Virus record (IMG/VR): IMGVR_UViG_3300050821_004371
Coordinates: 27,483-91,482 of that record
Direction: 5' to 3' (one strand)
DNA: 64,000 nt
Source: a virus
A program made the translations under genes and the position numbers. The notes beneath the pieces were generated by a model that was not told the DNA's origin, did no database searches, and was given only the letters and a program-made list of their open reading frames with translations. Below, in pieces: positions 5,188 to 28,920 of the stretch. Numbering within the stretch: position 1 is the stretch's first letter; each line of letters starts with the position of its first letter.

Positions 5188-6507
5188 TGATTTCACCAGA
5201 AACTAGCGAAGACATTCTCGCGGAGATTGCCCGAAATCTCGGGCGAATCGCCGATGCTCTTGAATACGCTCACAACTGCCACACGCCAACGCCAGACGAG
5301 TTGGACCCGTTTCACGACCAAGGAAATGCAACCAACCACCGTGTAAGCCAGTGCAGCGTGGACTATTGCGGCGAAGAAGCAATCCCGAAGAAATCCTTAT
5401 TCTCAATTAATATCAATGCGTAACCCCTGTCAAGCCTTCGTGAAAAACCGCAAACTGCGCTGTCGGGTTGCCTGCGGGCGTTCTGGTCGCCGTTGCTACG
5501 TTTCAGGTATGAGTTACGGAGTCAACATCGTCCTATGTTCGCGGCACAGAGAGCGGGAAAAGAAGCAATGTTTGTACGAAGTTGAAATTCTACCGTCGCC
5601 CGAAAGAGCGGCGGATTTCTTGGAGGGAATCTAAAATGATTATCAAGTGTGTTGCGGGCGAAAAACTGGAATTAAGCGATACTAGGCTAACCGAACTCGG
5701 AGATGTAAATCCGAGCGGTTGCCTGCCTCGTTACCTTAAATTAAAAGATTTGCGGGCAGCTTGGAAAAAGGGGTACGTGAAAGTAATTCGCGTTATGCCC
5801 ACGTTCGGCGGGGGTATCCTAACCACCGATGTACCTTTTGAGCCCGAAATATTCAAAATCGGCTGCCGGACCTTCTCGCCCGCCGCGTTCGCCAAGATTC
5901 TGAAAGCGGCGGGTGTCAAGCCTGTACGGAAAACGAAGCCCGCGAAGAAGAGGAAAAAATGATTTACTCATTCGTCTCTGGAATCGTATTCGGGCTAGTA
6001 TTATCGGCCACGGACAACGGCAGTATGGGTTGGCGGTATTGGGTTCTGCTCACAGTTTTCGCTCTTAACGGGGCTATACAATACTGCCTCGGAAGAGCAA
6101 GTAAATAGCGCCATGCCCGGTAAACCCATCACGCACGAAAACATCGGGGAGACCGTGTTCTACTACGACCCTAAGAACCAGGGGAAGCGTACGGGCGTCC
6201 TCGTCAGCCTGACGGCGGAGATCGCCCAACCGATCAAGGGCAAGAGGAAGAAAGTTTTGCCCGCAAGTGAGTGCGAATTATATACGAAAGAGGAAAGTCA
6301 ATGAGCGATACTGTGGAAGTAACACCCGAACCCATGGTCGTGGTTATCTCGGCGGCGGTTTGCCCATCCCACTCCTTCAACTACGTGTCAATGCCCAGAG
6401 ACGCGGGCGGCGATGCACGAGGGTTCTTATTTAAGTGCCCGATACGAGATTGCGGAAAGGGCGTTACGGCCTTGACGGGCACCAACTTCTAGTGTCACAC
6501 TATAGAG

Positions 6508-22564: not shown

Positions 22565-23249
22565 CTATCTCAAGTGGTTCAAAGCTCACGAATTTCTTGC
22601 AATCGCTTTGATTATAGTTGTTCCCGTCGCCCTGCTCGGTAACAAGGCCCTGAACAAAGATTACGACGCGGCGGTCGCCCGAGAGAAATCCGCCGAACAA
22701 ACTTTACAGACCCAGAAAGAACAGAACGACAAGCTAGCGATCCAGAACCAGCAGGCACAGCAGCAGTACCAGGTTCTTCTCGGGCAAGTCTCTGCGGATA
22801 ACAAGAAGCTGACCGCCGAAATGCTTCAGCTTTCACAAACGCTCGCCGCCCGACAAAAACAGGACGCCGCGCTCCCGTTGCCCGAATTGGCGTCCCGCTG
22901 GGAATTCTTAATTGGAACTTCAGGAATCTCAAGTACGGAAAACGGACTTCAAGCTTCCCCCGATGCGGCGCGGGCGACGGTTTCAAACCTGGAATCGTTG
23001 CCCGTACTCAAACAGCAACTTGCGGATGAAACTACTTTAGCGGGCGACAAAGACAAGCAAATTACGAGCCTCGGGCAAGTCGTTGGTGGGCAGAATACTG
23101 AAATTGCGGGCCTGAATATTCAATTATCGGACGCGAGCAAAGCGTGTCAGGCGCAAGTCGCGGTCGCCCGAAAGTCAAAGTGGCGCTGGTTTAAGTTCGG
23201 ATTTGTAACAGGATTCGTGACGGGCGTTGCGACCGGACATTATTTATGA
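22554..23249 (+). CDS. membrane-anchored coiled-coil protein (possible spanin-like)
   Basis: N- and C-terminal hydrophobic segments, Q-rich coiled coil. Confidence 0.35.
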   Translation: MLDNYLKWFKAHEFLAIALIIVVPVALLGNKALNKDYDAAVAREKSAEQTLQTQKEQNDKLAIQNQQAQQQYQVLLGQVSADNKKLTAEMLQLSQTLAARQKQDAALPLPELASRWEFLIGTSGISSTENGLQASPDAARATVSNLESLPVLKQQLADETTLAGDKDKQITSLGQVVGGQNTEIAGLNIQLSDASKACQAQVAVARKSKWRWFKFGFVTGFVTGVATGHYL

Positions 23250-24840
23250 TTTACAAAATACCAGTCATCGGTTACGTGGTCTCTTTTGTCGAATATCAGC
23301 GGGCAAATCGCGCCTATTGGAAAGTGGCGGATAAAGGCCCTGAATTTCCAGAGTACAACAAAGCGTACGCCGCAACCTGGGTCGCTTTCGATCATACTTT
23401 TGAAGCCTTCTGTTGGACGAGCGGATTTTTAATACTCGCCGCGATAGTTGGCGGAATGGTGTTTCTCCCGTGCATCTAGAAAGAGGAGTCTTTCCGCAAG
23501 ATTTGGTCAGAGGGAAGAACACCCCGAAAGCAGAAGACGAGGTTGAAAAGGAACTGATGCGGATTTATCGGATCGCCCCAGTAGCGTTCTCTGGGGCCGA
23601 TATGACGGGCTTTACAATCGGGGTAAAGCAGGAAGAGATTCTCTGCATTATACAGAAAACAGATTACGAGAAATTGCCCGAGGAATCAAGGCCAACACTG
23701 ATAATGCGGTACATTTTCAAAACTCCCGAGGAACAAGAAGCATTCAGCCTCGGGTCTCGTATTGAGGTCGTCACGGGCTTCGAGCCTTTTGCTACGATGG
23801 TTTATGGAAGCCCGCAATCTTTTGGGGCATACGATGAAAAGACCGGGCAGTACGTTTCGGAGGTTGGTAATTAATGATCCTAGAAATCGGGTATCTGACG
23901 CCGCAGCGGTATACAGATGAAATCAATATACTCAAACGCATCCAGGGCGGGTGTACGCAAATAATTGCGGAAATTTCTCCCGCCGACAGGTCGTTCTTCG
24001 AAAACGAGGGATTTTTCGTCGGCGGGACAGTTTCTCCCAAAACCGGGCCCATCCGTCTCATCGTCAAGAAGAATCTTCGAATAGACATCAGCGAGCCGTT
24101 GTGTACGGAAAATGAATTAACTATCGCGGAATCTGAGTTCCTGAAGATGCTAGCGGCCCGCTATCCTACACCGTATGCGCCTTGCATTGGTTTGTCGCCC
24201 GACTGGAGGACGATAGCCCGAGAATGGTATGAGGGACCTTATAAGCGGGCAATGCAAGAAGTCGGAGATCGAATTGCCCGCAGCGGTGGAGAAAGCCAAC
24301 TAACAATGGTCGGCAATTTCGAGGGGTCCCCAGACGGAACGGACACGTGGAAAATATGAAAGTCTACGTCGTAATGTCGGGTTTCTATGACCAATACGGT
24401 CTCAGTCAAGTCTTCGGGACCCGAGAATCGGCTGAGAAATACATCCAGCGGCACGTTAAAGGCGCATCTTCTTGGGCGGACGAGGTGCAGCCCGGATTCT
24501 ATCACACGATAGAGGCTGTAGTCGGAACCGAATCCCAAGAATCAGAGTTGGTTTATTTATGACATTTATAACAAACGCTAGCATCAAATATCCCTCGGGC
24601 GATGTCCGAGTTGCCTTCGACAGGGAATTGGAAGTGACGGTTGATACCCTATTGGAGAAGCAAGACATCATTCGGATGGCTGCACAAATTCTGGCGGGAG
24701 TTGCGAAATCCGATCAAATCCAGATTCGGGTATCGGCTGGCGATTTGCTGGCTGTTTTGGACCCTCATGCGGAAAAGGAGCAAGAAGCCTGAGATGCCCG
24801 AGATATATTGGTATACGAAAGAAGACATTGATCGTCTCGG

Positions 24841-24870
24841 TAGACGTATATGTCCGAAGTGTGGTAAAAT
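24841..24870 (+). promoter_or_regulatory. candidate promoter upstream of the pentamer arrays
   Basis: TAGACG-18nt-TAAAAT with extended -10 TG. Confidence 0.4.
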
Positions 24871-24921
24871 ATACCGTGAGTGCAAATGTTCCGATGAAGA
24901 AACCTGAGATCAAAATTCCGT

Positions 24922-24980
24922 GACGGGGCGTGTCTAGACGAGACTACACTAGACAGGACGTGACAAGACATGACAAGAAC
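24922..24980 (+). repeat. GAY-NN pentamer array A (11 units; putative guide RNA)
   Basis: GACGG GGCGT GTCTA GACGA GACTA CACTA GACAG GACGT GACAA GACAT GACAA GAAC. Confidence 0.9.
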
Positions 24981-24994
24981 TTTGATTTTTGCTA

Positions 24995-25034
24995 GACTAG
25001 ACATGATTCGACCCGACGAGACCGGACAAGACGA
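24995..25034 (+). repeat. GAY-NN pentamer array B (8 units)
   Basis: GACTA GACAT GATTC GACCC GACGA GACCG GACAA GACGA. Confidence 0.9.
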
Positions 25035-25046
25035 GAAAGGCCAAAA

Positions 25047-25898
25047 GTGAACAGCGAAGCGACGACCTTAAATCATCTGACCGAAATTGAAACCATGCTC
25101 CAAGACTACGAACCTATAGTCAAGCAGAGCATGTTGATTGACGGACAGGCTCGGTATGTAACTTGGGATTTCCGCAAAACCGCGCACGAAACTATTGAGC
25201 TTCTTCAGATCACCGATATTCAGTTCGGGCACAAACAGTGCGACGAACAGAAATTGCACGAATACTTGTCGTGGGTCTTGGCCGCCGATAATCGCTACAT
25301 TCTGCTTGTTGGCGATTTGATTGACGCGGGGCACCAATTGTCCAAGGGAAGTTGCTTCGAGCAGATTGGCGATCCGCAGACCGAAGTTTGGCGGCTTGTA
25401 GAAATTCTCGCCCCGCTTCGGCACCGCATTCTTGGGTATGTCGGCGGCAATCATGAGCGGCGTACGATCCCGACCTTCGGAGATGCTGGGAAGAACATCG
25501 CATCCATTTTGCGGATTCCGTACAGCCCTGGCAAGCAGCACATCGACATCTTGTTCGGGGATCATAAACCGTTCAAGATCACTCTCTGGCATGGTGGGGG
25601 AAGCGGCGGGACAAAAGGCGCTATCGCTAACACGGTATACCGCCTGATGATGCAGGCGGACTCTCAACTGTACCTTCTTGGACACCTTCACCAAGCCGTT
25701 GTGTTGCCCGATGCTCGCGAAACCAGAGACGGGAAAGGCGGGATTAAAATCACTAAGATCATGGGCGCGATGGGCACATCGTTCTTAAAGCATTATGGGA
25801 CGTACGCCGAAGTAATCATGGGAACCCGCCCGCAGACAATTATGATGGCTCGTGCTATAATCGAAAAGAACGGACATTGGGAGTTGACTTTACGCTAG
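25047..25898 (+). CDS. calcineurin-like metallophosphoesterase
   Basis: TDIQFG, VGDLID, GGNHE, WHG, GHLH motifs. Confidence 0.85.
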   Translation: MNSEATTLNHLTEIETMLQDYEPIVKQSMLIDGQARYVTWDFRKTAHETIELLQITDIQFGHKQCDEQKLHEYLSWVLAADNRYILLVGDLIDAGHQLSKGSCFEQIGDPQTEVWRLVEILAPLRHRILGYVGGNHERRTIPTFGDAGKNIASILRIPYSPGKQHIDILFGDHKPFKITLWHGGGSGGTKGAIANTVYRLMMQADSQLYLLGHLHQAVVLPDARETRDGKGGIKITKIMGAMGTSFLKHYGTYAEVIMGTRPQTIMMARAIIEKNGHWELTLR

Positions 25899-25952
25899 AC
25901 TCGTCACGACGCGACGCGACGTGACATGACTGGACAAGACATGACAAGAACC
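25898..25952 (+). repeat. GAY-NN pentamer array C (10 units)
   Basis: GACTC GTCAC GACGC GACGC GACGT GACAT GACTG GACAA GACAT GACAA GAACC. Confidence 0.9.
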
Positions 25953-26142
25953 AATCATAGCGGATTCTTAAAGGGGCTGGAAGCTCAAGCCCAAAAGTTG
26001 ATTCGGGAAGTGAAGCGGGAATCGGGGGTCAAAAAGCCCGGAGATAAGCCTTTGCTTATTGTACCGCCCGATCTCTCATTGCCCGAACGACAAACAATTT
26101 CTGGCGGGGCGAGATTAGTTCGCCCGCCAAACGATGTTTCGT

Positions 26143-26207
26143 GACCGGACTGGACACGACGCGATTAGACAGGACAGGATTTGACTAGACCGGACATGAC
26201 AAGAACC
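26143..26207 (+). repeat. GAY-NN pentamer array D (12 units)
   Basis: GACCG GACTG GACAC GACGC GATTA GACAG GACAG GATTT GACTA GACCG GACAT GACAA GAACC. Confidence 0.9.
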
Positions 26208-26249
26208 AGATTGTACAAAAGCTAAATTCAACCGCTCAAGGAGAGCAAA

Positions 26250-26828
26250 ATGAAAACAGCAAAAGTACGCCTGAAGTCAGCATCCCCGTATGCCCAAGGA
26301 CGGCATTACGCAAACGAAGTTCCTAAGCTTAACAAGGAAGGCGCGGACGCCTACGAGCAGCGCACTTGGGTCAACCGCTTGCACACCACGACCGAAGGCA
26401 AGGTTTTGATTCCGCCCTTCGCGTTCAAGAACGCTTTAGATGATGCCGCCAAGTTCCTCGGCGAGCAGATTCCGGGCAAGGGAAAGTCAACGTACACAAA
26501 ACATTTTCAGGCAGGCGTCATGGTGCTGGACCCGATGGTTCTCAAGACGCATAAGGACGATGTTCGCAAGGAAGCCCGATTCGTGCCCGCAGATGGCAAG
26601 CCCGGAAGCGGCAAGCGGGTTATGAAGTATTTCCCTGTGATCGACTCGTGGGAAGGTGAGGTCGAATTTCTCGTGCTAGACGATACAATCACGTTGCCCG
26701 TGTTGGAGCACCATTTGAAGCAAGCGGGGCAGTTCATCGGCCTCGGCGTATCTCGCCCGCGTAATCGTGGCGTATATGGGCGGTTCATCGTGGAAAAGGT
26801 GGAATGGAAGGATTCTGCAACAGTTTAA
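26250..26828 (+). CDS. stand-alone RAMP/Cas7-like RNA-binding protein associated with pentamer arrays (Vipr-like)
   Basis: N-terminal strand VRLKSASPY; IPPFAFKNAL (IPxxxxK of Cas7-group RAMPs); C-terminal G-rich loop AGQFIGLGVSRPRNRGVYGRF; AAGGAG RBS. Confidence 0.75.
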   Translation: MKTAKVRLKSASPYAQGRHYANEVPKLNKEGADAYEQRTWVNRLHTTTEGKVLIPPFAFKNALDDAAKFLGEQIPGKGKSTYTKHFQAGVMVLDPMVLKTHKDDVRKEARFVPADGKPGSGKRVMKYFPVIDSWEGEVEFLVLDDTITLPVLEHHLKQAGQFIGLGVSRPRNRGVYGRFIVEKVEWKDSATV

Positions 26829-26832
26829 GCGA

Positions 26833-26897
26833 GACGGATCGGGACGCGGCATGGCTTGACTTGATTTGACACGATACGACTTGACGAGACTTGACAC
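26833..26897 (+). repeat. GAY/GGC-NN pentamer array E (13 units)
   Basis: GACGG ATCGG GACGC GGCAT GGCTT GACTT GATTT GACAC GATAC GACTT GACGA GACTT GACAC, then GAGG RBS of recA. Confidence 0.9.
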
Positions 26898-26906
26898 GAG
26901 GTTTTA

Positions 26907-27881
26907 ATGGCTCTCAAAGAAGCTCTCACCCGTTTAGATAAATTGTTTGGGAAAGGCGTTGTCCTTCGCCTTGGAGACCACAAACCCGTTTCCGTTGAAA
27001 GTATAAGCACGGGCATCATGGGACTTGACAACGCCATCGGCATTGGCGGGCTTCCCAAAGGCCGAGTGGTAGAAATCATCGGGGCTGAATCGGGAGGCAA
27101 AACCACCCTCACTTTGTCCGTGATTGCAGAATGCCAAAAAGCAGGGGGTATCGCAGCTTTTATCGATGCCGAGCATAGTTTTGATCCAGTTTGGGCCAAG
27201 AAGCTGGGCGTGGATGTGGACAACCTGCTGGTTTCGCAGCCGGACTATGGCGAGCAGGCTCTCGAAATCGCGGAGAGTTTGATTCGGTCGGGCGATATAG
27301 GAATCGTTGTTGTTGATTCCGTAGCGGCTTTGACGCCAAAAAGCGAGATTGAAGGAGAATTCGGCGACTCGCAGATGGGTTTACAAGCCCGAATGATGTC
27401 GCAGGCAATGCGTAAGCTGACCTCCGCCACTCATAAATCCAACGCAATTCTGGTGATGATAAACCAAATTCGCGAGAAGATTGGCGTTTTTTACGGGTCT
27501 AATGAAACAACTCCTGGTGGGCGGGCCCTACGTTTTTATTCAAGTGTCCGCCTAGACGTACGTCGAGCGTCCACGCTGAAAGATGGGGAAGAACCAAGGG
27601 GCATTCGCGTCAAGGTTAAGGTAATCAAGAATAAGTGTTCGGCTCCGTTTAAGACGGCAGAATTCGATCTGATTTTCGGGCGCGGAATTGACAAAGAAGG
27701 CGATCTCGTTGATCTCTGTACGGAAAACGGAGTGATTTCTAAGAGCGGGGCGTGGTTCGTCACCGAGGGCGGTAGGAAGTTTCAGGGTAGGGATGCCGTG
27801 GTTCAGGCGTTTCGCGATGATTCGGATTATGCGGGCGGGTTCAAAACCAAGTTGCTCGAAAAGCTATGCTCAAAAGGATGA
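26907..27881 (+). CDS. recA: RecA recombinase
   Basis: [21 protein letters not shown]; FIDAEH; [12 protein letters not shown]; DSVAAL; [14 protein letters not shown]; [10 protein letters not shown]; KVIKNK. Confidence 0.97.
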
Positions 27882-27978
27882 AAAATCGCTATCGAGAAGT
27901 AAAAATGCTTCATATCGGGCTAGGCTCGGGCGTCTGGCATTTGATCGATATCGTTTACGTGCTTACGGGCAGGATATT

Positions 27979-28920
27979 ATGAACCTTCACAGCTATCCAA
28001 AAGTTTTTGCTATCGGGCACCGAGCGGTTGCCGACCTGTTTCAGGGCCCCGTGCTCGTTGAGGAAAAGATTGACGGCAGCCAGTTTTCCTTCGGTACGGT
28101 TAACGGACAACTTGAGCTCCGATCCAAAGGCGCGGAACTCTACCCCGACAACCCCGAGAAGATGTTCTCGCTCGGAATCTCTGCCGCCAAAGAACTAATC
28201 CCCGTCCTTCACGATGGCTGGACGTATCGGGCGGAGTTCCTCCAGAAGCCGAAGCATAATTGCATGAAGTACGGGCGGGTGCCTGCCCGCAACGTGATCT
28301 TGTTCGATGTCAATACGGGCGACGAAGTTTATTTAACTCGGGAAGAAAAGGAAGAAGAAGCTGCCCGTATCGGGCTGGAAATAACGCCCGTACTTTATCA
28401 GGGCTTGGTAGACTCGCCCGAAACTCTTTACGGGCTTCTGAAACGAGATAGCATCCTTGGCGGAGGGAAGATCGAAGGAATCGTAGTCAAGAACTACAAT
28501 CAGTTTGGCGCGGACAAGAAAGTCCTGATGGGGAAGTTCGTGACGGAGGAATTCAAGGAAACGCATTCCAAAGAATGGAAAGCCGATAACCCGAGCGTAG
28601 GAGACGTAATAGATCGAATCGTAGCAACTCTGCGGTCAGAAGTCCGCTGGAATAAATCCATTGCCCGGATGAAAGAAGCGGGGGCGCTCGAAAATTCCCC
28701 CAAAGATATCGGAATCTTGCTCAAAGAAATCCAAACAGATATCCGAGCGGAAGAACTTGACTTCATTCAAGGTAAACTGCTAGAGTACGCTCTGCCTCGC
28801 GTCCTGCGGGCGTCCACGGGAGGATTCCCCGAATACTACAAGAAACTGCTGCTTGAATCAGCATTCGAGGAGAAAGAAAGTGCACCATCGTTGGGAGGGT
28901 CGTCACGAGAAGTCAATTGA
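27979..28920 (+). CDS. ATP-dependent RNA ligase (Rnl2-like)
   Basis: SYPK; EEKIDGSQFSF (KxDG); YRAEF; LFDV; IEGIVVK; GKFV. Confidence 0.75.
   Translation: MNLHSYPKVFAIGHRAVADLFQGPVLVEEKIDGSQFSFGTVNGQLELRSKGAELYPDNPEKMFSLGISAAKELIPVLHDGWTYRAEFLQKPKHNCMKYGRVPARNVILFDVNTGDEVYLTREEKEEEAARIGLEITPVLYQGLVDSPETLYGLLKRDSILGGGKIEGIVVKNYNQFGADKKVLMGKFVTEEFKETHSKEWKADNPSVGDVIDRIVATLRSEVRWNKSIARMKEAGALENSPKDIGILLKEIQTDIRAEELDFIQGKLLEYALPRVLRASTGGFPEYYKKLLLESAFEEKESAPSLGGSSREVN

Follow-up and report, generated by a model that had tools for sequence, protein, structure and literature searches.

VIPR, a CRISPR-like RNA-guided DNA silencer, was first published in 2026 (bioRxiv 10.64898/2026.04.26.720920; structures in bioRxiv 10.64898/2026.04.26.720927), with the type II system of Escherichia phage SUSP1 (PDB 36pp) as its reference (bioRxiv 10.64898/2026.04.26.720920). 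In that system, a small stand-alone phage RAMP is combined with 9 to 16 tandem pentamers, each joining a constant triplet to a variable dinucleotide (NN); the arrays are intergenic and on the vipr strand, the guide reads its target with a 1-nt skip aligned to wobble positions, and neither a self target nor cas genes are present. The locus described here is alike in all of these respects and differs in its triplet, which is GAC instead of GGY. The difference matters because perturbations of the GGY motif, GGY to GAY among them, are reported to abolish silencing by SUSP1 VIPR (bioRxiv 10.64898/2026.04.26.720920); the Vipr protein of the present locus must therefore read the triplet differently.

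As natural targets of VIPR, the literature gives satellites, prophages, rival vipr genes, and decoy repeats. Solo vrRNAs and the wobble-aligned targeting of the active site of a satellite recombinase have been described (bioRxiv 10.64898/2026.10.15.759431), and an October 2026 survey based on entropy periodicity reports noncanonical VIPR arrays of the types GAC/NN, CAC/NN, WGT/NN, and TGH/NN (bioRxiv 10.64898/2026.10.21.760802). Also close are the backbone proteins of Class 1 CRISPR systems (type VII Cas7 and type III Csm3), which share the fold of RRM, thumb, and glycine-rich loop and which, as would be expected of the present Vipr, polymerize along a guide whose bases are flipped out at regular intervals.

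We analyzed a window of 64,000 nt (positions 27,483 to 91,482 of the IMG/VR virus record IMGVR_UViG_3300050821_004371; coordinates below are those of the window), together with the whole genome of the phage, which is 91 kb with direct terminal repeats. We are highly confident that the locus is a VIPR system, consisting of Vipr and five noncanonical GAC/NN vrRNA guides in a 4.5-kb block of this 91-kb phage. The system as such is already known and is no new kind.

THE VIPR PROTEIN

The vipr gene (26250..26828, + strand), preceded by the ribosome-binding sequence AAGGAG, encodes a predicted minimal RAMP of 192 amino acids with an RRM core, a thumb, and the glycine-rich loop IGLGVSRPRNRGVYGRF. The RAMP hallmarks for which a sequence-only reading had singled out this ORF are confirmed, namely, the motif IPPFAFKNAL and a C-terminal loop that carries IGLGVSRPRNRGVYGRF. 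An AlphaFold2 model (mean pLDDT, 93.2) has the Cas7 fold that this reading had expected; its best solved look-alikes in Foldseek are type VII Cas7 (E 2.5e-9; TM ~0.6) and then Csm3. A profile of 40 family members matches PDB 36pp ("SUSP1 Vipr protein") with an E value of 1e-9 across the thumb and the glycine-rich loop; the similarity to SUSP1 Vipr is limited to the C-terminal half, and the loop of the present protein has a 4-residue insertion. More than 1,000 homologues were found, the nearest being 98% (P0001) and 94% (P0002) identical at the protein level. Modeled fold and sequence homology alike identify the product of the 192-aa ORF as Vipr.

The shared fold notwithstanding, we rejected membership in Class 1 CRISPR-Cas. 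Neither Cas1 nor Pfam RAMP matches were found in the genome, and Tandem Repeats Finder detected no CRISPR-like repeat array, in agreement with the earlier statement that cas1 and CRISPR arrays are absent. Unlike the Class 1 complexes, which have a period of 6 nt, the present locus has one of 5 nt, and its guide is a repeat tract that holds information in only two of five bases.

In a search for one residue that would account for GAC versus GGC, the alignment column of SUSP1 D177 showed a partial association and no more: all 38 GGC-type loci have R there, against R, R, F, F, F, and V in the six GAC-type loci. The GAC-type loci are scattered on the tree and their placement is poorly resolved, so that the GAC type may have a single origin.

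FIVE PENTAMER ARRAYS NEXT TO VIPR

A motif-blind scan for eight pentamers with any three adjacent conserved columns, run on the window and on the whole 91,482-bp genome, found exactly five period-5 arrays, all on the + strand and all near vipr; fifty random Markov-1 genomes yielded two such places in total. Lying no more than 1.3 kb from vipr, the arrays have the layout known for VIPR, and their sizes (9 to 14 units) fall inside the published range of 9 to 16. The five arrays of the sequence-only reading are all present, with starts off by at most one unit, and its dinucleotide strings are the same as in our recount except for the first unit of each array.

Array A (24920..24979, + strand) starts 13 nt past the stop codon of the ORF at 24641-24907 and has 12 units, with NN = GT GG GT TA GA TA TA AG GT AA AT AA and the 3' end AAGAC ATGAC AAGAA. 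Array B (24993..25037, + strand; 9 units, NN = TA TA AT TC CC GA CG AA GA) lies 13 nt downstream of array A and finishes 9 nt before the GTG start of a phosphoesterase gene, whose TAG stop is overlapped by the first unit of array C (25896..25950, + strand; 11 units, NN = TA TC AC GC GC GT AT TG AA AT AA; 3' end AAGAC ATGAC AAGAA). Array D (26141..26205, + strand; 13 units, NN = GT CG TG AC GC TA AG AG TT TA CG AT AA) has the 3' end CGGAC ATGAC AAGAA, 44 nt upstream of the vipr start, and array E (26831..26900, + strand; 14 units, NN = GA GG GG GC AT TT TT TT AC AC TT GA TT AC) follows vipr. As the arrays occupy gaps between codirectional genes, they would probably be transcribed as part of the operon mRNA.

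Among the 59 units, we counted 42 GAC, 5 GAT, 3 GGC, 2 GTC, 1 CAC, and 1 ATC triplets; the constant triplet is not the canonical GGY. The proposal that the locus is a GAY-NN variant of VIPR holds as a description, with GAC or GAT in 47 of 59 units, and loses in novelty, since the survey already reports GAC/NN arrays (bioRxiv 10.64898/2026.10.21.760802). Because GAC/NN is a published noncanonical form, the triplet concerns the subtype and not membership in VIPR.

All five arrays finish with a GAR unit, the final unit having a purine at the third triplet position (GAA in four arrays, GAG in one), and arrays A, C, and D have the common 3' sequence GACATGACAAGAAC. The pocket of SUSP1 Vipr for the third triplet base excludes purines, and for this reason the filament may stop at the last unit with its GAA or GAG. 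The space 3' of the arrays is only 6 to 44 nt, and no structured tail was found on any of the five (folding z-scores of -1.6 to +1.6, none significant), which distinguishes these guides from the type II vrRNAs of SUSP1 with their long structured 3' tail or pseudoknot. A search of 23,500-28,500 for Rfam ribozymes and other RNA families found none.

HOMOLOGUE LOCI

Same-strand period-5 arrays adjoin vipr in 72 of 85 viral homologue loci, as the sequence-only reading requires of homologues of this gene. Together, the fold and homology of Vipr and the arrays at most homologue loci support the likeness to VIPR (a phage RAMP with GGY-NN repeats) drawn in the sequence-only reading, whose description of VIPR was correct (bioRxiv 10.64898/2026.04.26.720920). 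The commonest triplet is GGC (111 of 208 array stretches); GAC, CGC, CAC, CTC, AGT, GTT, and GTC also occur across the 85 loci, and GAC prevails in L009, L010, L047, L058, and L062. Turnover of the dinucleotides is seen in one GAC-type pair, L009 and L010, in which vipr and its flanks are ~99% identical, GAC is constant, and most NN positions and the number of units differ.

In 64 of 73 homologue loci, vipr has a neighbor gene of ~170 aa; a vap gene of this accessory kind is typical of VIPR systems, though some do without it. The accessory (vap) gene is absent from the present genome (profile search; best E, 0.12), a further difference from SUSP1, as is the interleaving of the arrays with the phosphoesterase gene and recA. 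The former (25047..25898, + strand, between arrays B and C) encodes a predicted calcineurin-like metallophosphoesterase of the SbcD/Mre11 type (Pfam PF00149, E 1.9e-5; PHROG 7339 "DNA repair exonuclease," E 3e-25); a homologue was found in only 1 of 85 homologue loci, and the gene is no conserved partner of vipr. A doubtful ORF of 72 aa (25926..26144, + strand; 67 aa from the ATG at 25941) lies between arrays C and D. Both of its candidate start codons are inside array C, and we rejected it as an accessory protein, having found no family, no relative, and no look-alike for it.

GUIDE E MATCHES RECA

Under the published rule of a 1-nt skip, the antisense reading of array E is V-K/N-S-K/N-V-V-K/N-K/N-K/N-I/M-A-P-P-S and corresponds to the RecA motif KVVKNK(I/M)APP. 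With nine units exact (18 fixed bases), it has 97 matches in IMG/VR, every one of which falls in a recA gene, in antisense orientation and with the skip at the codon wobble position; patterns of equal size from arrays A, B, C, and D have 0, 2, 3 (one sequence), and 1 match, respectively. With twelve units exact (24 fixed bases), there are at least 120 matches in bacterial recA, against ~0.004 expected by our own estimate. The best match among those listed covers 26 of 28 bases, and the JGI metagenome collection contains no perfect target of 14 units (28/28) or 13 units (26/26). The canonical recA site for this guide is the VKAKVVKNKIAPPF coding sequence, as in L199 and L202.

In 80 phage recA loci picked by protein similarity to the RecA of the window, independently of the DNA pattern of the guide, the per-locus best score at skip 1 was 17 to 24 of 28, and 28 of the loci scored at least 22; at skips of 0, 2, and 3, the same loci gave 15 to 19 of 28, and guides with shuffled unit order reached 22 in 1 of 3,200 trials. 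The guides of other loci, searched in the same recA-rich set, reached 19/20 in 0 of 1,356 ten-unit windows. Computation shows that guide E is programmed against the KVVKNK(I/M)APP segment of non-self recA genes, with the skip on the wobble position. The recA match of a GAC/NN guide is the one result that is new here; recA is unmentioned as a target in the published VIPR descriptions that we examined for it. Compared with the October survey, whose available part is alike in describing GAC/NN arrays of ~10 repeats beside a Vipr-like fold and gives arrays and fold with no target or decoding rule (bioRxiv 10.64898/2026.10.21.760802), the present guide decodes to a defined gene.

As in the targeting of the satellite recombinase (bioRxiv 10.64898/2026.10.15.759431), the footprint covers the first two positions of each codon in a near-invariant, functionally critical stretch, which leaves no synonymous escape. 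The two cases differ in that the target there is a satellite gene and here a recombinase gene universal to cells and phages, and in that the present carrier phage has, adjoining the guide, a divergent version of the target gene of its own.

Arrays A to D did not yield a comparable result. Exact nine-unit matches in IMG/VR showed no common gene family and extended poorly (the three for array C are one sequence, with no consistent gene); a search of all loci collected gave nothing above background; and no signal was obtained in 257 recA genes or, within the phage itself, in the genes for the phosphoesterase, Vipr, RecA, and the ligase. Array D had 2 matches in 251 genomes from the phylum of one best recA match, against 8 for the reversed control. 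The earlier idea that the NN pairs spell a gapped code, to be looked up in phage and host genomes, is borne out by array E, which leads to bacterial and viral recA by a 1-nt skip; for arrays A to D, no target was found. Guides A to D are probably aimed at other mobile elements or host genes.

A reading at the RNA level, in which guide E, as a + strand transcript with gapped complementarity to recA mRNA, forms a filament that blocks translation of this mRNA or recruits decay, has in its favor that the NN code of array E corresponds to the antisense strand of recA in every match and that the closest CRISPR look-alikes, Csm3 and type VII Cas7, are subunits of complexes that target RNA. We nevertheless consider it unlikely: the characterized VIPR binds dsDNA, on either strand, as an R-loop triplex seen by cryo-EM, and under DNA targeting the strand of the match is uninformative.

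THE PHAGE'S OWN RECA AND THE REPLACEMENT BLOCK

The phage's own recA (26907..27881, + strand; Pfam RecA, E 4.5e-125) starts 6 nt downstream of array E. Its site cognate to guide E (27609-27649, 14 residues) matches 20 of 28 guide bases, and this is the best skip-1 match of the guide across its own genome; guide E thus combines a 1-nt skip aligned to wobble positions with at most 20/28 against self, as expected of a VIPR guide. The 8 mismatches are spread over 6 of the 14 units, and the phage's own recA should escape guide E. In phages that lack VIPR, too, related RecAs frequently differ at this motif, so that the mismatch of this allele need not be an evolved escape; no vipr was found in five phages related by RecA. 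For arrays A to D, a scan of the phage's own genome at skips of 0 to 3 gave no self target, the guides scoring no better than shuffled ones. The absence of a self target has also been reported for other VIPR systems (bioRxiv 10.64898/2026.04.26.720920).

The closest relative compared, L310, is a complete phage of 92,960 bp without vipr or arrays. A replacement block (23177..27690) has no nucleotide similarity to it; besides small ORFs, these 4.5 kb comprise all five arrays, vipr, and the phosphoesterase gene, and they take in recA over its first two-thirds, the right breakpoint being inside this gene ~40 nt beyond the guide-E site on its 3' side. The 13-mer TACGGAAAACGGA occurs genome-wide and is missing from the block; we did not count this as evidence, since gaps of similar size occur elsewhere in the genome. 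As regards the host, ARAGORN found no tRNA or tmRNA from which it might be inferred, and the only match to an isolate phage was Pseudomonas phage LESphi2, at 28% identity.

DISCUSSION

By analogy with SUSP1, the arrays would be transcribed on the + strand, one Vipr protomer would bind each pentamer and sequester its GAC triplet, the exposed NN pairs would read dsDNA as NNxNNx, skipping every third base, and binding would silence transcription of the target. On our reading, the phage would in this way silence recA in its host or in rival phages and supply its own guide-immune RecA.

One might suppose instead that the locus is a decaying or inactive remnant in which GAC is a product of drift from GGC, the accessory gene has disappeared, and the arrays have fallen out of use; the missing accessory gene usual in its clade, the GAY triplets of a kind reported to abolish SUSP1 silencing, and four guides without a target would all fit. 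Such decay is very improbable, however, given that the vipr ORF is intact with all 30 invariant family positions kept, that GAY in 47 of 59 units is too uniform for drift from GGC, that GAC arrays with hypervariable NN are found at other loci, and GAC arrays also in the published survey, and that guide E retains a match of 24 to 26 of 28 bases to a real gene family. That the arrays act as DNA, serving between genes as promoter elements or as repeated binding sites for a protein and not as guide RNAs, would suit their position exactly at gene junctions, the TTGAC (the start of a -35-like hexamer) that arises where NN is TT, and several promoter-like matches overlapping the arrays, but is hardly credible, because binding sites would conserve their sequence and the NN of L009 and L010 vary between identical flanks, because array orientation is fixed relative to vipr in homologue loci, and because the recA code of array E would be left without explanation.

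Within the VIPR interpretation, the position of a recA guide directly before a mismatched recA invites the view of a weapon-and-antidote cassette, in which the guide would silence host or rival recA at the invariant KNK segment, the adjoining guide-immune RecA would replace it, and both would have traveled together as one recombination block. We judge the chances of this proposal to be even. If it is true, this is a natural VIPR guide against a universal cellular housekeeping gene, and the 1-nt-skip code of GGY/NN guides holds for noncanonical GAC/NN guides too. The locus is also a natural test bed for the respecification of the triplet by Vipr and for the 1-nt-skip code across noncanonical VIPR types. 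In bacteria and many phages, recA is the gene at the center of recombination and the SOS response, and beside the guide the carrier has a recA of its own that is mismatched to it; if confirmed, the targeting of recA would extend RNA-guided silencing from phage-phage conflict to the takeover of a core DNA repair function.

Results

A scan blind to GAC, requiring eight consecutive pentamers with any three adjacent columns conserved at 7, 7, and 6 of 8, returned arrays A to E only, both in the 64-kb window and in the whole genome; 50 Markov-1 random genomes yielded two such places in total. The region reads as the sequence-only reading, which had noted five pentamer arrays, described it. With the constant triplet setting the phase, array A spans 24920-24979 (12 units), B spans 24993-25037 (9 units), C spans 25896-25950 (11 units), D spans 26141-26205 (13 units), and E spans 26831-26900 (14 units). 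Among the 59 units, the triplet is GAC in 42, GAT in 5, GGC in 3, GTC in 2, and CAC and ATC in 1 each; the remaining 5 are the final units of each array, all purine-ended (GAA four times, GAG once). Gaps between codirectional genes are filled almost exactly by arrays: C begins on the phosphoesterase gene's TAG stop, D begins on the TGA of the ORF before it, the next start codon lies 9 nt past the end of B, and that of the phage's own recA lies 6 nt past the end of E. Arrays A, C, and D share the ending AAGAC ATGAC AAGAAC, which fits a pattern of relatives' arrays, 45 of 145 of which (a crude count) end in AA-triplet units and then a short T-rich stretch, compared with 13% AA among all units. 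Folding of the sequence 3' of arrays A to E gave no long tail or significant RNA fold, and no Rfam family matched in the region of the locus. At 24970-24998 and 25931-25958, sigma-70-like promoter matches (9/12) overlap arrays A and C at their 3' ends, owing to the likeness of ATGACA and TGGACA to the -35 hexamer; the overlap may have arisen by chance, or promoter function may be a second role of these array ends.

The 192-aa ORF between arrays D and E (26250-26828) matched no Pfam family, the RAMP model included, and had one PHROG match, of unknown function. Homologs numbered 1,178 proteins at E ≤0.001 in a word-indexed search and 1,068 cluster representatives in an exhaustive one, typically 185 to 190 aa long and ~60% identical to the window's protein. 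An AlphaFold2 model based on an alignment of 40 family members (mean pLDDT, 93.2) retrieved type VII CRISPR Cas7 first from the PDB with Foldseek (E 2.5e-9, TM ~0.6), followed by many Csm3 chains, bearing out the earlier assignment to a RAMP/Cas7-like protein. The family profile had exactly one meaningful match of known structure, 36pp, "SUSP1 Vipr protein" (E 1e-9), spanning the thumb and the glycine-rich loop.

Of 85 IMG/VR loci encoding Vipr homologs (L001 to L085), 72 carry period-5 arrays beside vipr, all read on the vipr strand except for a GAG array in L071, whose orientation seems inverted when compared with the CTC arrays of that locus. The constant triplet is GGC in most loci, GAC in L009, L010, L047, L058, and L062, and CGC, CAC, CTC, AGT, GTT, or GTC in others. 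It is nearly uniform per locus (for example, L068 3675-4673, L067 5079-5279, L076 2579-2885, and L060 2753-3665), and its variety falls within one Vipr clade (proteins 50 to 65% identical to the window's), which points to a triplet pocket repeatedly respecified within the clade. In a quick tree, GAC-type loci were scattered among GGC-type ones; with a weakly supported backbone, the tree is nonetheless compatible with a single origin. Vipr and its flanks are ~99% identical between the GAC-type loci L009 and L010, whereas most NN positions of their arrays differ, as do unit numbers (35 versus 27 and 15 versus 14), with every GAC kept; in these sequences, such turnover is the hallmark of a programmable guide. 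In 64 of 73 homolog loci, vipr has a conserved companion gene of ~170 aa, 59 times downstream and 5 times upstream (L001:4637-5137, L008:4628-5173, L010:4651-5187, and 61 further loci), which often has arrays on either side. This gene belongs to no clear family, showing weak matches to a winged-helix DNA-binding domain (E ~0.05), and probably represents the clade's vap gene. The neighbors of the window's vipr, encoding phosphoesterase, RecA, and RNA ligase, were not shared by the homolog loci compared.

Nine units of array E read as NNxNNx (18 fixed bases) matched 97 IMG/VR stretches exactly, all 97 in recA, antisense, and with the wobble position as the base skipped; equal-sized patterns from arrays A, B, C, and D matched 0, 2, 3 (one sequence), and 1. 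The gapped NN code proposed earlier is thus decoded for this array. Guide E spells V-K/N-S-K/N-V-V-K/N-K/N-K/N-I/M-A-P-P-S, corresponding to the RecA stretch KVVKNK(I/M)APPF. The KNK lysines (K248 and K250 in Escherichia coli RecA) presumably reach across the subunit interface to ATP in RecA filaments, an arrangement that would account for this segment being invariant. Fixing 12 of the 14 units (24 bases) gave matches in at least 120 recA genes of a bacterial genome collection, against ~0.004 expected by chance on our own estimate; the best bacterial recA among the matches listed reached 26 of 28 bases (Planctomycetota, Chlamydiae, and Dehalococcoidia MAGs, among others). Across 80 phage recA loci picked for the resemblance of their proteins to the window's RecA, independently of the guide's DNA pattern, the per-locus best with a 1-nt skip was 17 to 24 of 28 (≥22 at 28 loci), versus 15 to 19 with skips of 0, 2, or 3; shuffling the unit order reached 22 once in 3,200 trials. 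Guides of other loci, tested as 1,356 ten-unit windows, never reached 19/20 against a recA-rich set, arrays A to D gave no signal against 257 recA genes, and JGI metagenomes held no fully perfect guide E target. These results are evidence that a noncanonical GAC/NN guide uses the same skip rule as GGY guides.

The source genome (91,482 bp, direct terminal repeats, rated complete; the window is its bases 27,483-91,482) has a close relative in L310, a complete 92,960-bp phage that is 90 to 98% identical on either side of the locus and carries neither vipr nor arrays. Similarity ends at window position 23,176 and returns sharply inside recA at ~27,690, where nucleotide identity rises from ~55-60% to ~98%, ~40 nt past the guide E cognate site. 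Because of these breakpoints, we regard the arrays, phosphoesterase gene, vipr, and guide-mismatched part of recA as one 4.5-kb replacement. L310 lacks the body of an RNA ligase gene (27983-28901, within ORF 27793-28920; Pfam RNA_ligase, E 1.6e-12), the flanks being joined directly there (6086-6260); this gene body is a second insertion, separate from the block, that lies just downstream of recA. The 13-mer TACGGAAAACGGA has 41 copies in the window at ≤1 mismatch (0.24 expected by chance); the nearest copies, exact ones at 22934-22946 and 27719-27731, flank the 4.5-kb block. It has none inside, an absence that is not significant because comparable gaps are found at other places. A tandem repeat with a 15-nt unit, GGCGAACTTGCGGTC, occupies 1115-1379 (17.7 copies, 94% matches).

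Discussion

Systems named VIPR, for Viral Interference Programmable Repeat, consist of a phage-encoded ancestral RAMP, Vipr, that binds vrRNAs of 9 to 16 GGY/NN pentamers, whose NN pairs read out double-stranded DNA by skipping a single base from one pair to the next, usually at the wobble position of a codon, and binding silences transcription (bioRxiv 10.64898/2026.04.26.720920). The sequence-only reading had named this system correctly, and its view of the locus as a VIPR variant held. The GAC/NN arrays are not new: a later preprint describes 21 clusters of period-5 arrays with noncanonical triplets and names "GAC/NN or CAC/NN" adjoining Vipr-like folds (bioRxiv 10.64898/2026.10.21.760802), so that this triplet type is already in print. 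Judged from sequence, the locus is a genuine VIPR system of that reported kind and of a known family. It differs from the reference system of Escherichia phage SUSP1, which is GGY/NN, in its triplet, and the phage lacks both the ~170-aa accessory gene, which was not found in its genome, and a long vrRNA tail.

In the companion structure paper (10.64898/2026.04.26.720927), one Vipr protomer binds each repeat, H17 and D177 recognize G1, R138 and W178 hold G2, and the pyrimidine sits in the neighboring protomer's pocket, which excludes purines. In SUSP1, perturbing the GGY motif, GGY-to-GAY being among the changes tested, abolished silencing (10.64898/2026.04.26.720920). V167 and S168 of the window's protein align with D177 and W178, where the family consensus is R and F. 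Position 167 is R in 38/38 GGC-type loci versus 2/6 GAC-type loci, a lead rather than a rule. The purine-ended last unit of the arrays is worth following up.

The phage's own recA carries the best skip-1 match to guide E within its genome (27609-27649), with 20 of 28 bases matching and mismatches in 6 of 14 units, below the 80% target limit of the VIPR paper (10.64898/2026.04.26.720920). Bacterial relatives of the window's RecA have VKVKVVKNKVAPPF at this site in 89 of 120 cases, and its closest phage relatives have VIKNKC(A/S)(A/P)PF. From these comparisons we claim that guide E would discriminate self from nonself recA, but not that the mismatches are an evolved escape, because related phage RecAs without VIPR nearby are likewise variable in this stretch. 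In L310, the recA site, TKIKVVKNKIAAPA, agrees with guide E in 22 of 28 bases, including eight consecutive perfect units, so a sibling phage's recA would be as plausible a target as host recA. A recA-directed guide adjoining a mismatched recA allele of the phage's own is a point worth following up.
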